From Thermoflexus sp. (GTDB lineage: Bacteria; Chloroflexota; Anaerolineae; B4-G1; SLSP01), in assembly GCA_020722365.1 (NCBI GenBank), contig DYKY01000008.1, positions 1 through 50,310 on the forward strand: a DNA stretch of 50,310 bases, read 5' to 3'. A program made the position numbers and the translations under genes. This document shows positions 7,549-49,470 of the stretch, one piece after another (positions within the stretch are counted from its first letter, which is position 1; every line of letters starts with the position of its first letter). Under the pieces are notes generated by a model that saw only the letters and a list, made by a program, of their open reading frames with translations, did not search any database and was not told where the DNA came from.

Positions 7549-10500
7549 TACGCTACCTCCTCTTCTTTGGTTTGCGTTTTTGATATTTGGATGGGTTGTT
7601 TGAGAATGTGCCGGTACAGGTCAATCACATCGAAATACGATCCATTGAGGATTGCATGATGGATAACCTCACTTCCATTGAAATCCTGCGCCACGGTCTT
7701 TCCGACTAACCAGCGATATGGCTCAGCCCGTGCGCCGTCGGAGTTCTTCGCCAGTTCCCAGGCCTCCCACTTGCGAGCGAGCAACGTCGTCGCCGCCTGT
7801 AAGCGCGATTCGGACATGCCGGGAACGTCGCATATCGTCTCCCACACGTGCGCCAGATCGCCGACGCGCTCCAACAGATAGGGGCGCGGGCTGTGTCGCG
7901 CGCCCAACAGCGGGTGTGGGCGGCGGTTGCGCGCTTCGGGATCGGCGCTCAAGTGCGCCTCCAGGCGGCGGCTCACCGTATCCAGGGAGATAAAATCGAA
8001 CAAATTGGGCAAAAAGCCGATGGTATCGCCCGCTTGAACTTGCGAGACGTGTACCCAGCGTCCGTAAGGGCCAAGCAGGCTCATCCCGCGCTCTTTCAGG
8101 TTATCGCCGTTTCTCACCAGCATGTAAGGGTGATAGTAATCCGGCGCATCGTTGCCCAAACGCGCTGACACACGCCATTGCCAGGTTCCAAAGCGGTCGC
8201 TCTCCATGTGCAGTGTATAGTCCTCGCCATCGCCGGCAGATGCGGGATGCGTCTCGATCGCTGTTACTTTCGCTTCCGTCCAGAGGTTCCCCAGGTCGTC
8301 GAACGTCTCCGCAAAGCGGCGGGCTGTATCCAGCGCGGCGAACATCGGATAGTGCGCATCCATAAAGACCAGCCCCACGTGGAATGGCAGTCGGCCCTGC
8401 ACTTTGCTGAATTCCGCAGCATAGGCGGTTTGCATCTCCTGCGCAATCGCCAACGCCTTATCGGCGGGGACCATTGCCAGCAGCAGGTTAGGACTGGCGG
8501 TGATGACCTGGAAGGGGATGTAAGGTTCTTTGTCTACCTGCACAATGGTATAATCGCCGCCGAGCGCGGCATTGTTTTCTCCCGCCTGGAATCGCAGCGG
8601 CGCGCCGGTTGCCGCTGCCGCGCGGAGGCTTTCGATCTGTTCCGTCGTCACAGGGGTCGTCGTTTGGATTTTTCCATCCCCCCGCACCAGGATTTCAATC
8701 GTACCCAAAGTGGGCAGGTCGGCAGTGTAGTAACCCTTTTTCGGCGCGGTGCCCCACAACGTCAAAACGGCGCGCTGGCGCTCCGGGCCGACAGCGGTTT
8801 TCAGCGCCTTGGCCTGGTCTTGTAAGAATTCTTCAGTGGTTTGCCAGACACGCAACAACCGTGCCGCTGAGAGGTTCTTGCGAGTGACAGCAAGTAGAAG
8901 CGCATCATTATCTGGCAGATAGTAATCCTTAGCTATCCCCGCAGCAATCTTCAATGCTTTGCTCAATCGACCGTACTTCTGCAGATAACGTGCGATGCGT
9001 GCTTCAGTAGAAAGCGGTTGCTGTTGAGCCTCTTGAAGCTTCGTATAGAGACTTTGTGCTTCTTCCTCAAAGATAGCAATTTGAGCTTCCTGCTCTACCG
9101 TTCTACTATTGTTCTCGCGGAGGTTGTGCAGTTTAGCGCACTTGCTTTGCAGAGCAGATTTAGCCTGCTTTATAGCGGCCTCATACGCTGCTAGCTCTGC
9201 TTGCACAGCTTCTGTTGGGGCAACCAGTGTGCCCAGACGTTGCCAATTCCAATCTAGGGCATCTACAATATCCTCGCTCTGCGCCACATCCTGTGGTGAA
9301 GTAATGAACAACGTATGTAGCAGGTCACCCTTCAACCAATCCTCCAGGTCAAAACGGGCGACGATAAGCGCCGTTTTGCCGCGTGCGTCGGCAATCTCAC
9401 CGGTTTGGAACGTCCCACTCTGCTCTCGCCGCTGTTGCGCTCCTGCCCGGCGTCGTTTCGCGCACCAATCGCACAAGGAAGCGTCTCCAGGCGATGGGCG
9501 CTGATGACATACCGGGCAGAGTTCCGGCTTAATATCCCCTTGCCAGGTGGCTACCCATTCCGGCGCGCCGACGACGGGCAGTGTTTTACGTGCCTCCGCC
9601 ATCTGTCGCGCCAGCAGGGTCACGTGCTCGGTCGGGTCGCTCAACGTCACAACCGGCAGCAGCTCGCCGCCGCTCTTTGCATTGACAATCTCGCGCACCC
9701 GCGTGAACAACACATCTTTCTCTGTCTTCCCCTGTTCTATCTCTGCCTCCCACTTGAGATCGGCCACCAGGAAGTGAATGCCATCGTCGTCCTCGTAAAT
9801 GCGGTTGCCGATGGCATATTCCGTCTCGATGGCATCGCGCAAAGCATCACGCACGTCCGCCAACAATGCCGCGCGTCCCGCGACGTCAGAGAGACGGGCG
9901 AAGGGGGTAATGGCTCCCCACGAATCCCATTGCACAGTGAGAAGGCGGAAGGCATTACTTTTGCCAGGTTTTCTTTCTTCTTCCGGCAAAAGCTCATTGA
10001 TCAGATCGCGCGCCACAAAGGCTTTGAAGCGACTGGCGACACCCCAGACGTGCTGGTCCAGGCGTATGTCGTTGGCGGCGCGTTGGGTTTTGCCGAGGCT
10101 CAAGCGAAATACCGCCCCCAAATGCTTTTTCCATAAGTGTGTGCGGTCAAAAGATGGGAAATCTGTATCTGGTTGACATAGCAAAGCTTCAAGTTCCGGG
10201 TATAATGCTTGCCGTTTATCATCCAGTTCTACCAATGCAAGGGGTTCCTCACAACCAAACACGGTAGTGCTCTGCACTGGCGCTGGCTGAGATAAGTCAG
10301 CGGCGTTATACTGATCCTCAGCTGAATCGTTGCCATCGGCTTGTTTGAGCAACTTCAGCAAGTGCGATTTGCTACTGCGATGATGTTCGCTAATTAGGAG
10401 GCTTAACGTCAAATCTCCCAGCGGGGTAGGATGCGGCTGAATCATCCAGGCGTTTAGCTGGTCGCTTAACGGGTTTCCTGCTGCCTCAGAATCGTATTTC

Positions 10501-10757
10501 AACACACAACCATGCACCCATTTCACTTCAGGCGGCTCACTACAAGCCGTTTTTTCCGGACAAGGGTTGGGTTTTCTTTCTGCGCCAGCGATAGGTGGGG
10601 ACATTGCCTCTTCATCTACATCACCATACGCCGCATCGGTCTTACTCTCCACAAAACCTCGGCTCAGCTTGCCCAAATCGTGCAGCCAGGCGCCGAGTTC
10701 GGCCAGCAGGACGGTCTCGCGGTTCGCTTTTGCGCGTTCCAAGAGGGATTCAGGCAT
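7548..10757 (-). CDS. cas10: Cas10 (Cmr2-like) large subunit with an HD domain, a zinc finger, large insertions and a degenerate cyclase motif
   Basis: 1069 aa. HD motif WLHDLGK (aa 24-30) plus SEHH and KQADGNDS. Palm1-like IYEDDDGIHFLVAD. Zinc finger CPVCHQ...CDWC. Palm2 start VARFDLEDW. Where GGDD is expected, upstream of the conserved LLAMVPADKAL, the sequence reads ITASPNL (aa 752-758). Followed by GRLPFHVGLVFMDAHYPMFAALDTARRF. Confidence 0.85.
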   Translation of the reverse strand: MPESLLERAKANRETVLLAELGAWLHDLGKLSRGFVESKTDAAYGDVDEEAMSPPIAGAERKPNPCPEKTACSEPPEVKWVHGCVLKYDSEAAGNPLSDQLNAWMIQPHPTPLGDLTLSLLISEHHRSSKSHLLKLLKQADGNDSAEDQYNAADLSQPAPVQSTTVFGCEEPLALVELDDKRQALYPELEALLCQPDTDFPSFDRTHLWKKHLGAVFRLSLGKTQRAANDIRLDQHVWGVASRFKAFVARDLINELLPEEERKPGKSNAFRLLTVQWDSWGAITPFARLSDVAGRAALLADVRDALRDAIETEYAIGNRIYEDDDGIHFLVADLKWEAEIEQGKTEKDVLFTRVREIVNAKSGGELLPVVTLSDPTEHVTLLARQMAEARKTLPVVGAPEWVATWQGDIKPELCPVCHQRPSPGDASLCDWCAKRRRAGAQQRREQSGTFQTGEIADARGKTALIVARFDLEDWLKGDLLHTLFITSPQDVAQSEDIVDALDWNWQRLGTLVAPTEAVQAELAAYEAAIKQAKSALQSKCAKLHNLRENNSRTVEQEAQIAIFEEEAQSLYTKLQEAQQQPLSTEARIARYLQKYGRLSKALKIAAGIAKDYYLPDNDALLLAVTRKNLSAARLLRVWQTTEEFLQDQAKALKTAVGPERQRAVLTLWGTAPKKGYYTADLPTLGTIEILVRGDGKIQTTTPVTTEQIESLRAAAATGAPLRFQAGENNAALGGDYTIVQVDKEPYIPFQVITASPNLLLAMVPADKALAIAQEMQTAYAAEFSKVQGRLPFHVGLVFMDAHYPMFAALDTARRFAETFDDLGNLWTEAKVTAIETHPASAGDGEDYTLHMESDRFGTWQWRVSARLGNDAPDYYHPYMLVRNGDNLKERGMSLLGPYGRWVHVSQVQAGDTIGFLPNLFDFISLDTVSRRLEAHLSADPEARNRRPHPLLGARHSPRPYLLERVGDLAHVWETICDVPGMSESRLQAATTLLARKWEAWELAKNSDGARAEPYRWLVGKTVAQDFNGSEVIHHAILNGSYFDVIDLYRHILKQPIQISKTQTKEEEVA

Positions 10758-11877
10758 GGTGACCTCCTTTTGTAGTGGTCAATAATCGTATTTCAGCAGC
10801 CCAATCACGCAGGGTCAGTTGTAAATCGGCAAAGGTTTCCGGCTCACTTTCGACCTGTCCTGCCGCCTTGATGCGCCCCTGGTACTCCTGCGCCGCAATG
10901 GCGGTCTGGTATCGCGCAAAATCCGGCGGCTCCAATAACTCCTGCCATTCCACTGCGGTCCACTCATCCAGGGAACCAAACTCTTCTTCGAACTGACTGG
11001 CCACTAGAGGCTTGCGAATTGGGGCGAACTTCGCTACTATCCGTCCGGCAGGCTGGCGGTCATGTTTTTTGACCTTCTCAGCGGCGAATTTCTCATGTGC
11101 TATACCGTGTCCACTACTTGTCTTTGCGCCAAATCCATAAGTACAGAAAAGCAACGGCAGTGCTTTTGCCAACACTTCCCAGTCTTCCGCTACTGTCACT
11201 AACAAGGTCTCATCGTCTCTGTGATGCTTCCATTGCACCAAAGGAAAGTACAGCAGTGAGAAAACGCTCGCTGCGCCGGCCGGCACACTTTCCATAAGGA
11301 TGGGGTTTTTGCCTACTTTACGCTCGCGGTCGTGTGGATTAATGATTTCTACGCCTTGTTCGGTGAAGAAACTAGGAAAAAACTGAAGCCGCCCGGCGAC
11401 AAATTCCTTTTGTTCTTCCTTTTCATTGCCGAGCAAGCGTTGGATGACTGGACGCGCCCCAGCATCGTCGGCTGCCAGCTTGTCCAAAGCAGCCCGTAAG
11501 CTTCCTTTCCACGCTGTTGGGGCAACGCAAGGTAATTGTGAGAGTTTGTCCCGCCGCAATGGATTGTCAATGATATAAAAAGCGCGTTCATCTTTGGAGA
11601 GATACGCGCCAGACAATCGAAAACGGAATTGAATAAACAGCGTGTAATCCGGCAACACGGTCAAATCTACAGTAGGCGCAACCATCCACGGCCAAAACGA
11701 CCACTCTGGGACATCCAACCTACGTTGTTCCAGGCGATGCCTGGCCCATTCTTCACGAATACTCTCAGCGTCTTTCCGCTCCTCTATTTTCGAAGCATAA
11801 TAACGTGCAGTTTGCTTGCTGTTGTCTGCTTCGGCCTCTGCTGAGGGAAGTATATTGACCAGAAATTCATAGCTCAT
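10750..11877 (-). CDS. cmr6: RAMP protein, Cmr6-like by position, with N- and C-terminal extensions
   Basis: RAMP motifs CVAPTAWKGSLRAAL and YGFGAKTSSGHGI. 375 aa. Overlaps the cas10 start by 8 nt and the cmr1 stop by 4 nt (ATGA). Confidence 0.6.
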   Translation of the reverse strand: MSYEFLVNILPSAEAEADNSKQTARYYASKIEERKDAESIREEWARHRLEQRRLDVPEWSFWPWMVAPTVDLTVLPDYTLFIQFRFRLSGAYLSKDERAFYIIDNPLRRDKLSQLPCVAPTAWKGSLRAALDKLAADDAGARPVIQRLLGNEKEEQKEFVAGRLQFFPSFFTEQGVEIINPHDRERKVGKNPILMESVPAGAASVFSLLYFPLVQWKHHRDDETLLVTVAEDWEVLAKALPLLFCTYGFGAKTSSGHGIAHEKFAAEKVKKHDRQPAGRIVAKFAPIRKPLVASQFEEEFGSLDEWTAVEWQELLEPPDFARYQTAIAAQEYQGRIKAAGQVESEPETFADLQLTLRDWAAEIRLLTTTKGGHHA

Positions 11878-13094
11878 TGAATACCTCCTGAAGTCAACTC
11901 AAGCAAATCTCGTCCGAATGTTTTCTGACTCGGAGATGCTGCAAAGACTACTTGCATATACTCCTCACACAAAGAACACAACTCTTCCACACCAATTATC
12001 GCTCGTGGAGCAAAACCAAAAATTACCAGGCGATAGTCTGTATCTTCCTTCAGCGGCATGCTAAAACAGATATGACTGGCTGTGCGTAAGTCATCGCTAA
12101 CTTTGACCGTCTTGCCATAAGCATTTTTCCATTCAGAGCGCGGCCCCATGAGGTTATCCAACGGTCCGAGCATTGATGGATCATCACTCTCCTGCCAGCC
12201 TTTCTCGTCTCGTAGCCAGCGCCGCAGTCCCAAAGGCGCTTCGCCTTTGTATCGCAGATCAAAGGCGCAAGGGATATACCTATCCTCTGTCTTTTTCGTG
12301 ACATTGCCACAATGTGCATTAGGCCGCATAAAGCGATGTAAGACATGTGGGGGCAGGTAATACGTCAAGTGGAAAAAATTACGCAAGTCATAAGCTGTGG
12401 ATTGCATCGGAGCAGTTTGGCATAATCCCCCACCTTCCAATTTAGTTTTGAGCAGCCTCAGACCCTCCTGAACTGAGGTCTCAGCCAGTTTCGGCGGCAA
12501 TACTAAATCAGCGATCTGTCCAAACCCATGCTGTAGTCGCGCTCCCAGTCCTCCATACTCAACGATGAATCTGAACAATAGAGCCAGTTGCGACTGCACA
12601 TAATCAGTGTCGTGACCCCGTAACACAAGATTGAGGGTCGCTGCACCATAGGGTACCTCTAGCGCCTCTATACTATCACCTTGCTGTGGGTCACCCTGGA
12701 AAACCTTTCTTAGCCAGTTCTTGTTGATATCCAAGGTCGTGCGGAAATGTAGCGGTGTTCGTTCTACATGGACAACCTGGAGACGGAACAAACGCGCCCA
12801 ACCCGTAGCGCCAAAGAGATATTCCACAGCCCCTAACGATTTCAACCCTGCGGCTAAAGCTTCCGCTTTTGCGTTCCCATGACGCAAGGTATCCTGGTAA
12901 GCTTTGCTGCCAAACTCGCAGCGATACTCTCTTTCATCCGTCGTGGGGTTGCTGACATATCCATCCAACCCGCGCACAATTGCCTCGTACCACCAGCGCA
13001 GGCTGCCCAGCAGCCCGGTCACTTGTACGCGGTTGGCATGTTTGCTGGCATCCGCCGTCCAAAGTGGGGTCACAAAATTCAAGCTCACTTGCAT
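11874..13094 (-). CDS. cmr1: RAMP protein, Cmr1-like
   Basis: N-terminus LNFVTPLWTADA...VTGLLGSLRWWYEAIVRG matches the Cmr1 pattern (G.lR.W.Ra). Second G-rich loop EYGGLGARLQHGFGQI. GAAGGAGG ribosome-binding site before the ATG at 13094. First gene of the operon. Confidence 0.7.
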   Translation of the reverse strand: MQVSLNFVTPLWTADASKHANRVQVTGLLGSLRWWYEAIVRGLDGYVSNPTTDEREYRCEFGSKAYQDTLRHGNAKAEALAAGLKSLGAVEYLFGATGWARLFRLQVVHVERTPLHFRTTLDINKNWLRKVFQGDPQQGDSIEALEVPYGAATLNLVLRGHDTDYVQSQLALLFRFIVEYGGLGARLQHGFGQIADLVLPPKLAETSVQEGLRLLKTKLEGGGLCQTAPMQSTAYDLRNFFHLTYYLPPHVLHRFMRPNAHCGNVTKKTEDRYIPCAFDLRYKGEAPLGLRRWLRDEKGWQESDDPSMLGPLDNLMGPRSEWKNAYGKTVKVSDDLRTASHICFSMPLKEDTDYRLVIFGFAPRAIIGVEELCSLCEEYMQVVFAASPSQKTFGRDLLELTSGGIQ

Positions 13095-20189: not shown

Positions 20190-20852
20190 TCAGTTCGACA
20201 ATTGGCGAATCACCATCACCACTTTGCCCTGGACGCGCACATCGTTCGCCGGGACAAAGATCGGTTCCATGGTGGGATTGGCAGGTTGCAATCGCACGCG
20301 CGCGCCCTCATAGTAGACTTTTTTCAGCGTTGTTTCGGCGTTGCTGTTCAGCCAAACGGCAGCCATTTCGCCATTCTCGACGCGATCCTGATGGCGCAGG
20401 ATGACGGTGTCGCCATCGTGAATCAGCGCGTCGATCATCGAATTGCCCTGAACTTGCAACGCGAAAAGCCCATTGACATCCCGGCCAAAAAGCGCGCGAT
20501 TGATCTCAACTGTCTCGGTACCGTCGAGGGCTTCCACCGGTATGGGCGCGCTGGCGACGATATAGCCCAGGAAGGGGATCGACAGTGTCGCACTGCTGCC
20601 GGTCAAAAAATCACTCGGCTGATATGGGTTTGAGACCAGGCGGATACCGCGCGAGATGGAGGATTCGCGGTCGATCAAGCCGCGCTCTTCCAACCCCTTA
20701 AGGTAATAGGAAACCAGGGATGTTGAAGGAATATCCAACGCTTCTCCAATCTCACGCACGGTCGGCGGGTAGCCATTTGTGTTGATATAGTCGCTCAAGA
20801 AAGCGTACATTTGGGCTTGTCGTTCGAGCAGTTTCGTCTTCTTCGTTTTCAC
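20190..20852 (-). CDS. lexA: LexA repressor
   Basis: wHTH N-terminus (FLSDYINTNGYPPTVREIGEAL). S24 peptidase C-terminus (ALQVQGNSMIDALIHDGDTVIL ... TLKKVY). The GTG at 20852 is preceded by GGAGGTG and gives about 220 aa. The 71 upstream codons of the tracked ORF look non-coding. Confidence 0.9.
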   Translation of the reverse strand: MKTKKTKLLERQAQMYAFLSDYINTNGYPPTVREIGEALDIPSTSLVSYYLKGLEERGLIDRESSISRGIRLVSNPYQPSDFLTGSSATLSIPFLGYIVASAPIPVEALDGTETVEINRALFGRDVNGLFALQVQGNSMIDALIHDGDTVILRHQDRVENGEMAAVWLNSNAETTLKKVYYEGARVRLQPANPTMEPIFVPANDVRVQGKVVMVIRQLSN

Positions 20853-20909
20853 TATCCACCTCCACTTTGACGCACAATGTTTGCGGTTATCCCAAGTTAT
20901 CCCAAACTT

Positions 20910-20938
20910 ATTATAATTGCACATTTGTTCTATGTCAA
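20910..20938 (-). promoter_or_regulatory. Consensus sigma70-type promoter for lexA (TTGACA - 17 nt - TATAAT) with a candidate LexA box, GAACAAATGTGC (20919-20930), in the spacer.
   Basis: The minus strand reads TTGACA TAGAACAAATGTGCAAT TATAAT (plus-strand tgtcaa at 20933-20938, attata at 20910-20915). The spacer box differs at one position from the GAAC-N4-GTTC Cheo-type SOS box. Confidence 0.55.
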
Positions 20939-21200
20939 GTCCTAAATCGAAAAATGCCGGTGATGACCCATATCTCACCGCAGAGCACGCTGAGGCCGCA
21001 GAGAGATACAAAAGAAGCTTTCTCTGCGTGCTTTGCGACCTCTGCGGTGAATGAATCGCGCGCATCGTGCAACATGTAATGGGATTGCATTACGAGTCAT
21101 TTTCGTGTAAAATAAGATATAGACTCACTGTAGTCCAACAACGCAAGGACATGCAACCATAATGATTGGAACGCACCAGCTGAATTGTAGGCGAGAGACC

Positions 21201-22166
21201 ATGAAATCGATACGGTTTTTTAGAAAGATAAGCATAGTGCTCTTACTCGCCATTGCGGTAGGATTCTTTGCGCCACAAACCAGCCTCGCACAACGTAAGA
21301 CAGAAGAGTTCTTCGTAGAGACTGGGCATCTGGTAAAGGGAGAATTCTATACCTATTTCCGCACGTATGGCGGTTTAGAGATCTTCGGCTATCCCCTTAC
21401 CGATGAGTTTGTCTATCAAGGACTCACAGTGCAATACTTCCAGAAAGCACGTATGGAATGGCACCCGGAAAACCCGGTCCCGTACAAGGTTCAATTGGGG
21501 CTGCTCGGGGAAGAGTTAAAATACCGGCAACCGCCCGTGCCCGAACCAACGCCACGCTCACGGCGCAAGGTCTTTTTCCCTGAGACGGGGCATACCGTGT
21601 CTTACGCTTTCCTCGATTTCTTCAATAAACATGGCGGTATAGATATCTTCGGCTACCCGATCACAGAAATGTACTTTGAGGATGGCCAGATTGTCCAATA
21701 CTTCCAACGTCTAAAATTACTATGGCAACCCAACGATCCTGTTAACACCGTAGCCGTTGGCAATCTTGGATCTGTCCACTACAATATGTATCGTGACCAT
21801 ATGCTATCGGAAACACCTGGTGAAAGCCGCATTCAGACTGAGATTACCAAACTGCGCGCAGTCGTGTCGTTGCGCTACTCAGTTATGAGTACACGGCGCA
21901 ATCAGATCGTGACAGTCCTGGTGACCGACAACAACAGCGGCGCTCCGATAGAAAATGCACAAGTCAATATCAGTTTTGTCGATAAATCTGTGAATGTCAC
22001 TCTGCCTGGCAGCAGTCAAACGCTCATCACAGATAAGCGCGGTTTTGCTAGCGTCTCATTACCCGTCAATGAAGGACACTCCGGCACGAATATTGTCGTA
22101 CTCGCTGTTGTTACCTATGGAGGTTTGAGCACGACAGCTCAAAACGTGTTCCTGTTGTGGTGGTAG
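21201..22166 (+). CDS. Secreted or membrane-anchored hypothetical protein with duplicated G-H-x-V ... GG-x-x-IFGYP motif and an Ig-like C-terminal region
   Basis: Signal or anchor sequence MKSIRFFRKISIVLLLAIAVGFFAPQTSLAQ. Internal repeat ETGHLVKGEFYTYFRTYGGLEIFGYPLTDEF / ETGHTVSYAFLDFFNKHGGIDIFGYPITEMY. No enzymatic motif recognised. Confidence 0.6.
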   Translation: MKSIRFFRKISIVLLLAIAVGFFAPQTSLAQRKTEEFFVETGHLVKGEFYTYFRTYGGLEIFGYPLTDEFVYQGLTVQYFQKARMEWHPENPVPYKVQLGLLGEELKYRQPPVPEPTPRSRRKVFFPETGHTVSYAFLDFFNKHGGIDIFGYPITEMYFEDGQIVQYFQRLKLLWQPNDPVNTVAVGNLGSVHYNMYRDHMLSETPGESRIQTEITKLRAVVSLRYSVMSTRRNQIVTVLVTDNNSGAPIENAQVNISFVDKSVNVTLPGSSQTLITDKRGFASVSLPVNEGHSGTNIVVLAVVTYGGLSTTAQNVFLLWW

Positions 22167-22173
22167 GATACCT

Positions 22174-22217
22174 AACAAACAAAAACAGCGCGGTGATACA
22201 CCGTGCTGTTTTTGTTT
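22174..22217. terminator. Bidirectional intrinsic terminator between convergent genes
   Basis: Stem cagcgcgg (22186-22193) / ccgtgctg (22201-22208) with one mismatch and a 7-nt loop. Flanked by an A-rich tract (22174-22185) and tttttgttt (22209-22217). Confidence 0.65.
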
Positions 22218-22245
22218 CGCCTATGATGCTACTGAATTTACAGTC

Positions 22246-22416
22246 TTACTCTTCGGCGCCATCCGGCATCGGAATTAATCCCAGACGTACTTTGAGCCGC
22301 GCGAACCAGGATGTTTTACGAATAACCGAGGGGGTTCCGCTGGTGCGCATATTGCGCAAGCGATCCACCGTCCGACGTAGCTTCTGCATCTTCACCACAT
22401 TTTCTTTATCTGCCAT
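22246..22416 (-). CDS. Small basic protein (56 aa), absent from the ORF track
   Basis: The minus strand reads GGGAGGGTAGTTC ATG GCA GAT AAA..., encoding MADKENVVKMQKLRRTVDRLRNMRTSGTPSVIRKTSWFARLKVRLGLIPMPDGAEE. Strong ribosome-binding site, and the terminator lies just downstream. No homology assessable here. Confidence 0.4.
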   Translation of the reverse strand: MADKENVVKMQKLRRTVDRLRNMRTSGTPSVIRKTSWFARLKVRLGLIPMPDGAEE

Positions 22417-22490
22417 GAACTACCCTCCCGATTCCTCAAGGAATCAATGACTCTTAAATTCTAACACCAACTCCCGGTAAAGCAAATGTA

Positions 22491-23321
22491 TCACTCTTCC
22501 AGCGTCGTAAGCGCCTGCTCCGGCGAAGAGGCAAATAGATACCCCACACCACGCACATTCAAAATGTAGCGAGGATTTTCAGGATCGGGTTCCAACTTGC
22601 GCCGCAACCGCCGGATGTGAACCCGAACGATTGAACGCGCCCCCCAGGCATCGGTATCGTATCCCTGCGCACAGCGCACTAAATCTTGCGGGGTACAAAC
22701 TTCGCCCGCCCGCCCTATCAAACATTCCAGAAGACGGAATTCCGTCGGCGTCAGTTCGACCGGTTGCCCACGATACGTCACCAGATGTTTACCCTTATCA
22801 ATCTGAATATCGCCGACGACGGTGGCGTCATCTCCCTTTTCCATCTCGGACAGGGCCTCTACACCCATCAAGCCGTCCGTCGTCGCCACCAAAGCCTGTA
22901 GCGTATTTTGAAGCTGGCTGATCAGCAAACGACGGTGACGCCCGGCCTTCAACTCCGAGAGCGCGCGTCGTACAGCGACTAACACCTCTTCTACGGGACT
23001 GGGCTTGAGCAAAAAGTCGTAAGCGCCCTTACGTAACGCCTGGACGGCCGTCTCCAACGTGCCGTAGCCGGTAATGAGGATGACGATGGTTTCCGCAGAA
23101 ATCCTGCGGATGCCGTCCAGCACCTGCAAGCCGTCCATACCCGGCAGGCGCAGGTCAAGAATGGCCAGATCAAACATAGGCTCTTGGCGCACAATCGCAA
23201 GCGCCTGCTCACCAGAGGCTGCTAACGTGACGTGGTAGCCTTCAAGACGCAGCACTTCGCCGAGGGTGATCCGCTCGGCTGCTTCGTCATCCACCACTAA
23301 AATGCGAATATCGTCCATCAA
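22491..23321 (-). CDS. OmpR-family response regulator (REC + winged-helix DNA-binding domain)
   Basis: REC N-terminus ILVVDDE...DLAILDLRLPGMDG. C-terminal LTPTEFRLLECL...VRVHIRRLRRKLE...ILNVRGVGYLF. Confidence 0.9.
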   Translation of the reverse strand: MMDDIRILVVDDEAAERITLGEVLRLEGYHVTLAASGEQALAIVRQEPMFDLAILDLRLPGMDGLQVLDGIRRISAETIVILITGYGTLETAVQALRKGAYDFLLKPSPVEEVLVAVRRALSELKAGRHRRLLISQLQNTLQALVATTDGLMGVEALSEMEKGDDATVVGDIQIDKGKHLVTYRGQPVELTPTEFRLLECLIGRAGEVCTPQDLVRCAQGYDTDAWGARSIVRVHIRRLRRKLEPDPENPRYILNVRGVGYLFASSPEQALTTLEE

Positions 23322-45532: not shown

Positions 45533-48500
45533 ATGATTCCTGAAGAACTACACCTCCGCAATTTTCTCTCGCACCGCGAGACCGACCTGGACTTGCGCGG
45601 GGTTCACCTCGCCAGTCTGGTCGGGGAGAACGGGGCGGGCAAATCCGCGCTGCTCGACGCGATCACCTGGGCCGTGTGGGGGCGGTCGCGCGCGCCTTAC
45701 GGGCGGGATGAAGACCTCGTCTATCACGGCGAGGACAACCTCGAAGTCGAGTTCGTCTTCCGCATGCCCTACCAGGGTGGGGACGAACGGCGTTGCCGCA
45801 TCCTGCGCCGCCGCGAGCGCCAGGGACGGCGCTCCACCGGCTCGGTGCTGGATTTTCAGGTGGAAGGCGACGAAGGCTGGCGCAACCTCACCGCCGACAG
45901 CATCCGCGAAACGCAAAGCCGCATCATCGCGCAACTGGGGCTGGACTACGACACCTTCGTCAACTCGGCCTACCTGCGCCAGGGCCACGCCGACGAGTTC
46001 ACCGTCCAAACGTCCGGCGACCGCAAGCGCGTGCTCGGCGCTATCCTGGGGCTGGATCGCTGGAACGAATACCAGGATCGCGTCAAAAAGCGGCTTTCCG
46101 GCACGCAGGGCCGCATCCAGGAAATGGATCGCCGCCTGAGCGAGACGGAGCAGGAATTGGCCCGTCGCAGCGAATACGAGACGCTGCTCGCCGAGGCCGA
46201 AGCGCAGGTTCAGGCCACTGCGACAAGCCTGGCCGAAATCCAGACGCAGGTGGATGAAATCAACCGCGTGCAGGAACAGGCCCTCGGCCTGCGCCGCCAG
46301 ATCGCCGACCTGGACGAACGTCACCAACAAGAAAGAGCCAGACTGGCGCAACTGGAGCAGCAAGAGGAAACGCACCAGGGCCAGCAGGCGTACTACGCGA
46401 GCATGGTCGAACAGGCCGCCGCCATCGAAACGAACTACCAGGCGCTCCACGCCGCCGTCGCCGAAGAGCGCGCCTGGGGCGAGAAGCTCGGCCAGGCCGC
46501 CCGGCTGCAAAGCGAGAAAAGCGCGCGCGAGCAGGCCATCGCCGCCGAACGCGAGGCGCTCAACAAGCAACTGCGCGCGGCGGAACAGAAGATCGAACGC
46601 ATTGAGCGCGTCATCGCCGCGAACCGCGCCGCTATGGAACGCGCGCTGAGCGACCTGCGCGGGCAAATCGCGCTCCTGCACGAACGCACCGTCGATCCGG
46701 CGCTGCAAGCCAAACTCGACGCCGCGCGCGCCGAACTGGTGCAGTTGGACGCCATCGCCGAAGAGCAGGCGCTGATCCGCGAAACGCTGCAAACCGGCGA
46801 GGTCGAACGCAGCCGCCTCATCGAGCGCAACCGCCAGCTCCGCGAGCTGATGAACGAAGCCAAGAGCCGCATCGAAACCCTGGCCGAGGCCGAGGCCGCG
46901 TGCCCACTGTGCCGCCAACCCCTCACGCCCGAACATCAGGAGCGCCTGCTCAACGAAATCCAGGCCGAAGGCAAAACCATGGGCGACGAACACCGGGCCA
47001 ACGACGCGCGCATCCAGACCCTCAAGGACGAGAAGGCCGCCTTGCAATCACGTCTGCAAGAGCAGGAACGACTGCTCCGCACACGTCCCCAGCAAGAGCA
47101 AACCGTCGCCCGGCTGCAACAGCAGATCGAACAAAGCGACGACGCCCGCAAGCGCATCGCCATCGTGCAGGCGCAGGCCGCCGAGGTCGAGAGCCAACTC
47201 GCCGCCGAAGCCTACGCCGACGCGGAACGTCCCGCGCTGGAACAGGCCCAGGCCGCCGCGCACGCCCTTCAGACGCGCATCGAACAAGAGGATTACGCCG
47301 CCGACGCACGCGCGGAACTTGACCACATCCACGCGGAACTGGCCGAACTCGGCTACGATGCCGGCGCCCACCAGGAAGTCAAAAAGCGCGTCCAGGCCCT
47401 CGCCCACGCCGAAGACGATTACCGCGAGTTGGAGAAAGCGCGCGTCAGCATCGAGAAGGAAGCGGAGACGCTCAAACGGCTCGCGCTGGAAATCGAAGCG
47501 CAGCACGGGCGCATCACTGCGCTGGAAGCTGAACGCGCCACGCAGGAAGCCGCGCTCGACGCGCTGCGCCCCACCCTGGCCGAAGCGCCCCGCCTGACGC
47601 ACCTGCTCAACGAGGCGCGCCAGCGAGAGGCCGTCGCCCGGCAGCGCATCGGCGCGGCGCGGCAAAACCTCGCCGCGTTGGAGACGCTGGAACGCCGCCA
47701 GCAAGAAATGCGCGCCCAACGCGAGGAACTGGGCGCGCGCGTGGGCCTGCTCACCGAACTGCGCGATGCCTTTGGCGTCAACGGCATCCCGGCGATGATC
47801 ATCGAACACACGCTGCCGGAGCTGGAACGCGAGGCCAACCACATCCTGCAAAGCCTCACCGCCGGGCGGATGCACGTCCGCTTCGACACGCAGCGCGAGA
47901 CCAAGACCGGCAACCTGCGCGAAACGCTGGACATCATCATCAGCGACGAGAAGGGCACGCGCCCTTATGAGAATTTCTCAATTGATGGTTCTGAACCGGT
48001 TTGCATTCGCCGCAATGGAAAAATCCTCAACCTTCCCATTCAGAACTTATGGTCTGACAACCGCGTAACGGTTCAGATGGATTCTGGGCACGAGATTCAA
48101 GCAATTGATTTTGAAGCCTTGTGTTATCGAGATGGCAAAGCCGTTTGGTTACCAGCGGCTAATATCCTGCGCCACCCTGCCCCCGAAACGCTACTCAGAG
48201 TCAAACTATCGCCGGGCAATTATTCAATCGCAGTTACATCCAGTCATAGTGTTTATGTTATGACTCCCGAAGGGTTAAGCGTCAAACGCGGCGACGAATT
48301 GCGCCCTGGCGACTGGATGTTGACGCCCCGTCGTATTCCCGAACATGAAATAGTTCCGCAGATTGATCTAAAAGATGGAGATTGGCGAGTGCGCCCAGAG
48401 AAGTCTCAGGCCGAAATTGGAATTACAACAATCAGTCCACAGTTGGTTGCGGATACTGTTTTTCTCTGTCGCCAATTACAGATTTGGGCGAGGGTCGAAA

Positions 48501-49195
48501 AACACGGCGACGCTGGTTTTCGGCGCAATATGAACCATCAAACCTCATATCGTGTAGCCATTACGGGGCAAAACAATGTCCAACGCTTATTTGACGATGT
48601 AAAAATTGCAAACATCGCGCATCCAGGTAAATTTGAGGGAATCCCTTTGGCTTTGCTTAACATTGAACGCAATACTGGTCAGCGGCGGCTCAAACGCGTT
48701 CAGAGTGATGCGAACTTTAAATGTGGGACACTGGTTGTGCCAAAACGTAGTCAAGCGCAATATGAACAAATGCTTCATTGGCTTGAAGATTGGGCTGTCT
48801 TGGAAGTGACTGGAATAGAACCGGTGTCGCCTACGACGCCTTATGTTTATGATTTGGTTGTTCCAGATAATCACTCATTCACAGCAGGAACCGGGGCAAT
48901 TTTAGTACACAATTCTGGCGGCGAGCAATTCCGCGTCAATTTCGCCATCCGCGTAGCGCTCTCGCGGATGCTGGCACAGCGCGCGGGGGTGCGCCTGCGC
49001 TCCCTCTTCGTGGACGAGGGCTTCGGCTCATTGGACACTGAGGGACGGCAGCGGCTGGTCGAAGCCGTCAAAGCCGTGCAGCACGAATTCGACCTCGTCC
49101 TCGTCATCACCCACATCGACGAACTGCGCGAGGCCTTCCCCACGCAGATTCAGGTGACGAAGGGTGAGGGGGGATCCATCGTCGAGGTGGTTTAG
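45533..49195 (+). CDS. sbcC: SbcC/Rad50-family DNA repair ATPase with coiled coil and zinc hook, interrupted by an intein
   Basis: Walker A GENGAGKSAL. Long Q/E/A/R-rich coiled coil. CPLC hook. Signature and Walker B motifs SGGEQF...LFVDEGFGSLD. 1220 aa including a 312-aa insert. Confidence 0.85.
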   Translation: MIPEELHLRNFLSHRETDLDLRGVHLASLVGENGAGKSALLDAITWAVWGRSRAPYGRDEDLVYHGEDNLEVEFVFRMPYQGGDERRCRILRRRERQGRRSTGSVLDFQVEGDEGWRNLTADSIRETQSRIIAQLGLDYDTFVNSAYLRQGHADEFTVQTSGDRKRVLGAILGLDRWNEYQDRVKKRLSGTQGRIQEMDRRLSETEQELARRSEYETLLAEAEAQVQATATSLAEIQTQVDEINRVQEQALGLRRQIADLDERHQQERARLAQLEQQEETHQGQQAYYASMVEQAAAIETNYQALHAAVAEERAWGEKLGQAARLQSEKSAREQAIAAEREALNKQLRAAEQKIERIERVIAANRAAMERALSDLRGQIALLHERTVDPALQAKLDAARAELVQLDAIAEEQALIRETLQTGEVERSRLIERNRQLRELMNEAKSRIETLAEAEAACPLCRQPLTPEHQERLLNEIQAEGKTMGDEHRANDARIQTLKDEKAALQSRLQEQERLLRTRPQQEQTVARLQQQIEQSDDARKRIAIVQAQAAEVESQLAAEAYADAERPALEQAQAAAHALQTRIEQEDYAADARAELDHIHAELAELGYDAGAHQEVKKRVQALAHAEDDYRELEKARVSIEKEAETLKRLALEIEAQHGRITALEAERATQEAALDALRPTLAEAPRLTHLLNEARQREAVARQRIGAARQNLAALETLERRQQEMRAQREELGARVGLLTELRDAFGVNGIPAMIIEHTLPELEREANHILQSLTAGRMHVRFDTQRETKTGNLRETLDIIISDEKGTRPYENFSIDGSEPVCIRRNGKILNLPIQNLWSDNRVTVQMDSGHEIQAIDFEALCYRDGKAVWLPAANILRHPAPETLLRVKLSPGNYSIAVTSSHSVYVMTPEGLSVKRGDELRPGDWMLTPRRIPEHEIVPQIDLKDGDWRVRPEKSQAEIGITTISPQLVADTVFLCRQLQIWARVEKHGDAGFRRNMNHQTSYRVAITGQNNVQRLFDDVKIANIAHPGKFEGIPLALLNIERNTGQRRLKRVQSDANFKCGTLVVPKRSQAQYEQMLHWLEDWAVLEVTGIEPVSPTTPYVYDLVVPDNHSFTAGTGAILVHNSGGEQFRVNFAIRVALSRMLAQRAGVRLRSLFVDEGFGSLDTEGRQRLVEAVKAVQHEFDLVLVITHIDELREAFPTQIQVTKGEGGSIVEVV
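47978..48913 (+). mobile_element. Intein (312 aa, Ser1 ... His-Asn / Ser+1) inserted in the ABC signature motif of SbcC
   Basis: Extein junction YENF | SIDGSEPVCIRRNG ... GAILVHN | SGGEQF. Block B-like VTSSHSVYV. Block F-like VYDLVVPDNHSFTAG. The DNA is visibly AT-richer than both flanks. Confidence 0.8.
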
Positions 49196-49401
49196 CAGGG
49201 GGACATCATCGCGCCATACGCAATAGCAGCCCGGACATCCTCCTCGGTCAGTTGTGGGTACTCTTCCAACACCTCCTCAATGCTCATGCCGGAAGCAAGA
49301 AAGTCCAATAGCAGGGAGACCCACAAGCGTGTACCACGAATACACGGCTTGCCGAAACAAACGCCGGGATCGATTGAAATACGTTCTAGTAACTTGTGCA
49401 T
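49192..49401 (-). CDS. DUF433-family small protein (antitoxin-like HTH)
   Basis: ISIDPGVCFGKPCIRGTRLWVSLLLDFLASGMSIEEVLEEYPQLTEEDVRAAIAY matches the DUF433 pattern. GGAGGA ribosome-binding site before the ATG at 49401. Confidence 0.75.
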   Translation of the reverse strand: MHKLLERISIDPGVCFGKPCIRGTRLWVSLLLDFLASGMSIEEVLEEYPQLTEEDVRAAIAYGAMMSPC

Positions 49402-49470
49402 AAAATCCTCCGCAAGAACCATATGCCTTTCCTCTTATTCTACCGCGAAACCAAGCAATTCGAGCGGAAA

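Follow-up and report, generated by a model that had tools for sequence, protein, structure and literature searches.

Inteins lodged in the conserved motifs of ATPases are well known. In the homing-cycle model of intein and homing-endonuclease evolution, reportedly put forward by Goddard and Burt in 1999 and by Gogarten and Hilario in 2006, they pass through invasion, fixation, endonuclease decay, and loss. Among inteins of solved structure, those closest to the element described here are archaeal and reside in other host proteins: the Methanocaldococcus TFIIB mini-inteins (Protein Data Bank, PDB, entries 5o9i and 5o9j), true mini-inteins of about 180 amino acids without endonuclease remnant, and PI-PkoII (2cw7), whose endonuclease is complete and active. 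We analyzed a stretch of 50,310 nucleotides from Thermoflexus sp. (phylum Chloroflexota, class Anaerolineae; assembly GCA_020722365.1, contig DYKY01000008.1), hereafter the window, in which a gene for an SbcC/Rad50-family ATPase carries an insert of 312 codons (47978..48913, forward strand) at the signature motif shared by ATP-binding cassette (ABC) and structural maintenance of chromosomes (SMC) proteins. Profiles, PDB alignments, and a BLASTN gap delimit this insert as a class-1 type intein running from Ser1 to Asn312. We consider it likely that it is a genuine class-1 intein of the SbcC signature motif, derived by endonuclease deletion from a LAGLIDADG intein, and that it splices but does not home.

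The host open reading frame (ORF; 45533..49195, forward strand) encodes a precursor of 1220 amino acids, or 908 once spliced, and its 1220 codons contain neither stops nor frameshifts. A first-pass annotation of the sequence had called the product an SbcC/Rad50-like ATPase, and the Pfam profiles agree: AAA_23 matches at the N-terminus, Rad50_zn_hook at the CPLC motif, SbcC_Walker_B at the C-terminus, and SMC_N over the whole length. SbcC and Rad50 are also the best NCBIfam families, both below their equivalog cut-offs (253.8 bits for TIGR00618, sbcc, on the unspliced protein, against 478.5). On these profiles the host is a predicted family-level member of SbcC/Rad50, orthology to Escherichia coli SbcC not being established. 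The spliced product has the full motif set of the family: Walker A (GENGAGKS, at residue 31), the CxxC zinc hook (CPLC, 457), the signature motif (SGGE, 816), Walker B (LFVDE, 846) followed by the D-loop in LFVDEGFGSLD, and the H-loop (ITH, 880), with SGGE standing 30 residues ahead of Walker B. The N-extein (45533..47977) contributes 815 amino acids ending in GTRPYENF. The C-extein (48914..49195; 93 amino acids and the stop codon) opens with Ser+1 and the SGGE signature (48914-48925) and contains Walker B at 49004-49018. The spliced protein exceeds the form of about 697 amino acids found in most Anaerolineae homologs by about 200 residues, because its coiled coil is longer. Its best database matches point to a host within Chloroflexota, probably of the class Anaerolineae.

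The insert consists of 312 in-frame codons without a stop, from SIDGSEPVCIRRNG to TGAILVHN, placed between Phe815 and the serine of SGGE (GTRPYENF/insert/SGGEQFRVNF...LFVDEGFGSLD). Re-translation of the window reproduced exactly the coordinates and residues quoted by the first-pass annotation, which had also proposed that removing the insert would restore F-SGGE. After in silico splicing the SbcC_Walker_B match indeed becomes contiguous (profile positions 9-89, 41 bits), against positions 32-89 and 33 bits before, and natural intein-less alleles have precisely this sequence. Four empty-site proteins (P0006, P0007, P0009, and P0010) all read GTRPYENF/SGGEQFR. The first two are 95-96% identical to the window over the best local alignment, in the C-terminal extein segment, and the other two are 83-87% identical to its extein. 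The intein-less gene L002, on the contig that encodes P0007, is 87% identical to the window host over 712 aligned residues. When the two genes were compared by BLASTN, 87-90% identity was found on both sides of a gap corresponding to 47978-48913, with an overlap of +/-3 nucleotides. A non-splicing insertion domain common to the orthologs was rejected, since the orthologs have either nothing at this position or a homologous intein.

The composition of the insert differs sharply from that of its host. Its guanine plus cytosine (GC) content is 0.471 and its GC content at third codon positions (GC3) 0.42, against 0.665 and 0.82 in the N-extein and 0.645 and 0.83 in the C-extein, and the shift is abrupt at both boundaries. 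The insert had been described as AT-rich; this holds relative to the flanks, from which it differs by about 19 GC points, and not in absolute terms, at 47% GC. Such an abrupt change at both ends could betray an assembly chimera, with low-GC foreign DNA misjoined into a high-GC contig, and a search of the protein database did not return the protein of the window itself. We regard a chimera as scarcely credible: the boundaries fall exactly on codon edges, the frame remains open for 312 codons, and homologous inteins with the same GC contrast occupy the same site in at least seven independent contigs.

The identification of the insert as an intein rests on its profile matches and its intact catalytic residues. 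A search with Hint-domain profiles, advised by the first-pass annotation, returned signals above the curated cut-offs: Pfam Intein_splicing (PF14890) matched with an E value of 3.8e-11 and 43.4 bits for a gathering score of 35.8, and TIGR01443 (intein C-terminal region) with 26.8 bits for a cut-off of 15.6. The best matches among solved structures are the TFIIB mini-inteins 5o9i (E = 4e-15) and 5o9j (E = 2e-14), to which both halves of the insert align (residues 2-124 and 270-312); PI-PkoII and the Pyrococcus (Pho) CDC21 and RadA inteins come next. The N-terminal splicing (Hint) half comprises residues 1-125 (47978..48352), aligned to residues 6-131 of 5o9i, with block A at Ser1 (47978-47980) and block B at T87-S-S-H90 (48236-48247). 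The C-terminal half, matched by TIGR01443, comprises residues 266-312 (48773..48913), aligned to residues 152-194 of 5o9i, with block F, VYDLVVPDNHSF, at residues 290-301 (48845-48880) and block G, VHN, at residues 310-312 (48905-48913). Blocks A, B, F, and G also align with those of the TFIIB and PI-PkoII inteins, VTSSHSV in the window standing against VTGSHSV in the known inteins; YAYDLTVP..NF.AG...HN is likewise shared. The catalytic set is thus complete, from Ser1, TSSH, and block F to His311-Asn312 and Ser+1, as the first-pass annotation had noted. The first four elements (Ser1, TSSH, block F, and HN) are conserved in every relative found, in which position +1 is Ser or Thr. The match to inteins is far beyond chance, and these comparisons confirm the insert as a genuine class-1 intein in the ABC/SMC signature motif of SbcC.

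The same SbcC site holds an intein in at least seven more metagenomic sequences from Chloroflexota. L001, L003, L004, L005, L010, and P0122 are full-length, and L009 is a frameshifted copy. These full-length inteins, together with P0001, P0003, and P0008, share with the window the insertion point, Ser1, His-Asn, and Ser or Thr at +1. They are 54-65% identical to the window intein and collinear with it outside a deletion, and every one of them has a lower GC content than its host. Where both ends are visible, the junctions read [FY]/S...HN/[ST]GGE and the length is 474-476 amino acids. Unlike the 312-residue window intein, which is shorter by 164 residues, these relatives have both LAGLIDADG motifs, LAEFLGLAVAE(A/G)SG and AFLxxLIxGDG. 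Their public names, "LAGLIDADG family homing endonuclease," "hypothetical protein," or "exonuclease SbcC," are all automatic. The lineage at the SbcC site is rare: intein matches were found in 6 clusters, all of the long form, of a database of 5.8 billion clusters, in 3 of 185,579 species genomes, and in two metagenome contigs, and no intein relatives were detected in the viral contigs searched. The matching assemblies, where named, are Chloroflexota, Anaerolineae, or Anaerolineales. The window intein therefore probably derives from a 474-476-residue LAGLIDADG intein that circulates at one site among Chloroflexota, probably within the class Anaerolineae.

A survey of the insertion site, another suggestion of the first-pass annotation, thus recovered both full-length inteins and empty alleles. 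As in the homing-cycle model, empty (L002 and L006-L008), full-length, and endonuclease-deleted (window) states all exist at a single site. Instead of slow decay by point mutations, the window allele shows one clean in-frame deletion, and the element still looks foreign in composition. Some relatives have irregularities of their own. In L009 (contig Ga0105092_10000405, around 2450-2590), a full-length intein is split by a frameshift, and the resulting ORFs (66-2591 and 2452-3819) overlap immediately past PGDFVLTPKRIP, within a few codons of the start of the window's deletion; this frameshift reflects either faulty sequencing or decay that struck the same place independently. In L001 (contig ERZ25039459 contig_3361, 4578-7707), with Thr at +1, the intein-bearing sbcC was called as two genes. 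The C-extein of L001/P0002 diverges and ends early at RIAISSSWPAAPAHSSRRW, which suggests a frameshift or a decaying host gene. Two short metagenomic fragments, P0130 and P0146, encode distant SbcC-like or ABC-type C-termini with an intein ending in ILVHN/SGGE or ILVHN/SGGQ, and the P0146 host sequence is divergent (SGGQKSQIDLAYRLAL...LWIDEGFETQD). Occupation of the signature-motif site may thus extend to SbcC-like ATPases beyond the Anaerolineae group.

The size difference is due to the loss of exactly 164 alignment columns that are present in all relatives and include both LAGLIDADG motifs. The lost helices read LAEFLGLAVAEASG and AFLxxLIxGDG in the relatives, and just KDGD is retained in the window. 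Protein alignments, together with the DNA of the window and its relatives, place the deletion scar at DLKDGDW (residues 130-136; 48365..48385), and the DNA comparison places the junction itself at the GAT codon of Asp133 (48374-48376). In the relatives, the edges of the deleted segment are (A/C)TT GAT TGG on the left and GGT GAT GG on the right. A join at GAT predicts D-x-x-D-G-x-x-R-x-R-P, and the window reads DLKDGDWRVRP. The deletion probably arose by a microhomology-mediated in-frame event at the GAT codon, in which recombination or slippage would have occurred between two T-GAT-(T)GG microhomologies. Neither the junction peptide IDLKDGDW nor other window-specific peptides matched in metagenome contigs, and the short form is unique so far.

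Downstream of the junction, residues 133-207 (48374..48598) correspond to a remnant of the second LAGLIDADG subdomain without its helix. Pfam Hom_end matches this remnant with 22.2 bits for a cut-off of 21.1, over profile positions 23-93 of 110 only, and LAGLIDADG_3 over positions 14-80 of 82 with 15.4 bits, below its cut-off of 22.5. The family profile aligns with the second endonuclease subdomain of PI-PkoII (residues 347-427) with an E value of 1.5e-15. Residues 208-265 (48599..48772) form a linker to the C-terminal splicing half; it is collinear with that of the full-length relatives and is the least conserved segment in this comparison (47% identity). The first-pass annotation, which saw no clear LAGLIDADG or HNH motif, had left the endonuclease as either degenerate or of another type. 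The first option is borne out, as a LAGLIDADG remnant lacking 164 residues that include both helices. An HNH or other type was rejected: no such profile matched, and the remnant is derived from the LAGLIDADG family by its matches to Hom_end and PI-PkoII. The remnant is 65% identical to the full-length copies, and the same segment is 60% identical among those copies, so that this identity comparison gives no sign of relaxed constraint. With divergence no greater than that among the full-length copies themselves, either the deletion is recent or the remnant is still constrained.

With both helices absent and a partial profile match, the window intein does not qualify as an active two-motif LAGLIDADG enzyme. 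Nor is it a mini-intein, in which a splicing domain of about 130-200 amino acids stands by itself and a short linker takes the place of the endonuclease: it has 312 amino acids and keeps about 135 non-Hint residues. Judged from these features, it is an intermediate form. Since both LAGLIDADG helices were removed, the endonuclease would be dead and the element unable to home. It would then persist by vertical descent, because only precise excision leaves sbcC functional.

The composition of the element is informative about its origin. In every allele the GC3 of the intein is below that of its host (0.41-0.59 against 0.65-0.94). In the window, the last five N-extein codons (47963..47977) and the first codon after the insert read CCT TAT GAG AAT TTC/TCT, in which T is the last base of three N-extein codons and of the codon for Ser+1; the GC-rich empty alleles have C at these places. 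Among GC-rich hosts, the codon at -4 is TAT in all six alleles with the intein; in all three GC-rich empty alleles it is TAC. The sole empty allele with TAT at this position is the low-GC L007, whose gene GC3 (0.40) resembles the composition of the intein itself. These codons fit a candidate short co-conversion tract or a half-site requirement of the endonuclease, and, with the low GC of the intein, they suggest a donor of lower GC that passed on the intein by homing. L007 (GCA_030614825.1, JAUWTG010000101.1) is about 83% identical to the window host in the C-terminal region of SbcC, with a GC3 of 0.40 against 0.82 in the window; a near-identical SbcC protein sequence has thus been kept across a very large compositional shift within the host group. 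The intein GC3 of 0.42 matches that of the L007 type.

A recent horizontal arrival, to which a GC3 of 0.42 in a host of 0.82 and the T-ending flank codons point, might also mean that the shortened intein is still mobile, either through an active remnant nuclease or because a full-length relative mobilizes the short copy in trans. Full-length copies do circulate in related Chloroflexota, and the Asp-Gly of KDGD may correspond to the catalytic Asp of the second motif. We nevertheless find continued mobility very improbable. The window intein has lost both interface-forming LAGLIDADG helices as well as the first catalytic acidic residue, neither a second short allele nor IDLKDGDW was found in metagenome contigs, and the 6 clusters retrieved from 5.8 billion are all of the long form. 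Mobilization in trans would moreover require the donor, the recipient, and the endonuclease in one cell.

From established intein chemistry, the 1220-residue precursor would be translated and Ser1 would initiate an N-O acyl shift at the Phe(-1)-Ser1 bond. The resulting ester would be passed to the hydroxyl of Ser+1 by trans-esterification, Asn312 would cyclize with the help of His311 and free the intein, and an O-N shift would rebuild the Phe-Ser bond, restoring F-SGGE in an active SbcC of 908 amino acids. Before splicing, the signature motif would be parted from the preceding strand, and the ATP-sandwich dimer of SbcC heads should not form. Selection on the host gene was estimated against L002 by the ratio of nonsynonymous to synonymous substitution rates (dN/dS). 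This ratio is 0.18 over the exteins and 0.017-0.054 in the 50 codons on each side of the junction, with 0.05-0.13 in the last 200 codons of the N-extein and 0.017 in the first 50 of the C-extein. Such low values agree with sbcC being functional and, by extension, with the intein being able to splice, without being proof of either. The element is most likely splicing-competent yet immobile.

Several observations weigh against this interpretation. TIGR01445 (intein N-terminal region) scores 20 bits, under its cut-off of 24.5. AlphaFold2 yields a mean predicted local distance difference test (pLDDT) score of 33 from the single sequence and 43 from an eight-sequence alignment; the predicted Hint fold is supported by sequence profiles alone. 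The endonuclease remnant, large and partly unfolded at about 135 residues, could hinder splicing or slow it down, and dN/dS is no proof of current function because it averages over the time before invasion. For the history proposed above, the microhomology was read from diverged relatives and not from the direct ancestor, and the flank-codon signal compares six alleles with three that are not phylogenetically independent.

Taken further, some of these points would make the element a splicing-defective relic that inactivates SbcC, and sbcC a young pseudogene. The 164-residue deletion leaves an incomplete endonuclease subdomain within the Hint fold and might disturb its folding, for which AlphaFold2 gives no confident model. 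The window contains no sbcD partner gene: no Metallophos match was found among about 35 large ORFs scanned in positions 1-50310. An adjoining SbcD/Mre11 gene is typical of the SbcC family, though not obligatory. Possible decay at related loci, namely the L009 intein frameshift and the divergent, truncated C-extein of L001/P0002, goes in the same direction. All catalytic positions are however intact, the 1220 codons are free of stops and frameshifts, extein dN/dS lies between 0.02 and 0.18, and the divergence of the remnant is not accelerated. Low AlphaFold2 confidence is expected with an alignment of only one to eight sequences. A relic is thus unlikely, though less so than continued mobility.

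A functional intein might alternatively have been co-opted as a conditional switch, SbcC remaining inactive until DNA damage, temperature, or redox conditions trigger splicing. With its signature motif interrupted, the precursor is certain to be unable to assemble the ATP-sandwich dimer, and the retained remnant, of a DNA-binding type, could in principle sense DNA. Novikova et al. (2016, PMC4760082) argue that the host may benefit from inteins, which would account for their clustering in the ATPase motifs of proteins for replication and repair. Against this, Ser1 and Ser+1 give no disulfide trap, and the close hosts P0006 and P0007, 95-96% identical in the C-terminal extein segment, lack the intein. 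Selfish elements are classically recognized by just this combination of sporadic occurrence, low GC, and a decaying endonuclease. Among the alternatives concerning the fate of the intein we rank co-option last, as a distant prospect.

Relatives of the window intein were also sought outside SbcC by a HMMER search of 1.84 billion representative proteins, with the intein stripped of extein residues as query. There were 351 matches at E <= 1e-3. The three at E <= 1e-30 are all SbcC inteins. Five of the next seven are inteins of radical S-adenosylmethionine (SAM) enzymes, NrdG (P0123, P0125, and P0126) and QueE (P0127 and P0129); another radical-SAM intein, in Tes (P0157; NCBIfam NF045703, rSAM_Tes_intein), lies further down the list. 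The NrdG, QueE, and Tes inteins are all inserted directly ahead of [ST]GGEP, the SAM-binding GGE motif. As the best non-SbcC matches (E values from 2e-30 to 5e-18, 32-41% identity), these inteins share with those of SbcC Ser1, HN, and a C-extein starting with [ST]GGE. They differ by their unrelated host proteins and by their N-extein flank (GVCL/ALVL against YENF in SbcC); they are full length, with 389-526 amino acids, and their similarity is far lower than that within the SbcC group.

In a neighbor-joining tree of 59 inteins with defined junctions, which includes the five NrdG/QueE inteins and leaves out P0157 (Tes), the SbcC inteins are monophyletic with 100% bootstrap support. They form a clade with the five NrdG/QueE inteins (83-87% bootstrap; 72% on Hint-only columns), and the radical-SAM inteins alone are not monophyletic. 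The sampling favored sequences resembling the query, and neighbor joining is a simple method, so we treat this result as a lead. A tentative explanation, to which we give somewhat less than even chances, is that the SbcC inteins arose by a rare ectopic jump from radical-SAM GGE-site inteins, or the reverse, with the endonuclease guided by the shared [ST]-G-G-E coding sequence. Ectopic movement of inteins is thought to be very rare, and the related non-allelic inteins of RPB2, ThrRS, and ClpP show no similarity of their flanks (Goodwin et al. 2006, PMC1635734). Unlike those cases, the SbcC and radical-SAM inteins share some flanking sequence, on the C-extein side only. If true, the jump would be a natural case of related non-allelic inteins that also share flanking target sequence.

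The genes hflX and rlmE precede sbcC in the window, and a DUF433 gene and a PhzF-family gene follow it. The DUF433 gene (76 amino acids; 49192-49422, reverse strand) overlaps the sbcC stop codon by 4 nucleotides and lies in a patch of lower GC (about 0.50). On the syntenic contig L006, the PhzF-family gene directly follows sbcC without DUF433, which makes the window DUF433 gene look separately inserted. A DUF433 gene likewise occurs in L001, beside a HigB toxin gene near sbcC, and a radical-SAM gene and a Metallophos_2 gene come after the intein-bearing sbcC of L001.

Two other regions of the window deserve mention. Genes of a type III-like CRISPR-Cas system, among them a reverse transcriptase encoded separately, occupy 720-13094 on the reverse strand. 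The cluster encodes Cas1 (720-1793), an RVT_1 reverse transcriptase (1975-2889), Cas6 (2903-3712), two ORFs without Pfam match (3844-5133 and 5138-6088), three RAMP proteins (6445-7548, 10750-11877, and 11874-13094), and a 1069-residue protein with a weak match to the Cas10/Cmr2 palm (7548-10757). The distal part of the cluster (10.2-13.8 kb) is lower in GC (0.48-0.53). A low-GC island (0.47-0.52) at 20190-22800 encodes a LexA-like repressor of 291 amino acids, whose DNA-binding domain begins at residue 77, indicating an N-terminal extension or a mis-set start; the adjoining 334-residue ORF (21162-22166) matches no significant Pfam family.

Full-text literature searches retrieved no description of an SbcC or Rad50 intein. 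In the main census of bacterial and archaeal inteins (PMC4760082), SbcC and Rad50 are absent from the text and the top-host tables, rare entries in the supplement being possible. The SbcC signature-motif insertion site is apparently undescribed, and the element is otherwise a typical class-1 intein of LAGLIDADG lineage. For annotation, the gene at 45533..49195 is an intein-containing sbcC and not a "LAGLIDADG homing endonuclease." The short allele shows the place at which a LAGLIDADG intein can naturally lose about one third of its length, a guide that may aid the engineering of smaller inteins with Ser/Ser junctions. For the biology of inteins, the locus adds the ABC/SMC signature motif of SbcC to the insertion sites and offers, in its empty, full-length, and endonuclease-deleted alleles, a compact natural series for the study of the homing cycle. 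The link with the GGE site of radical-SAM enzymes provides a testable example of how an intein might colonize an unrelated protein.

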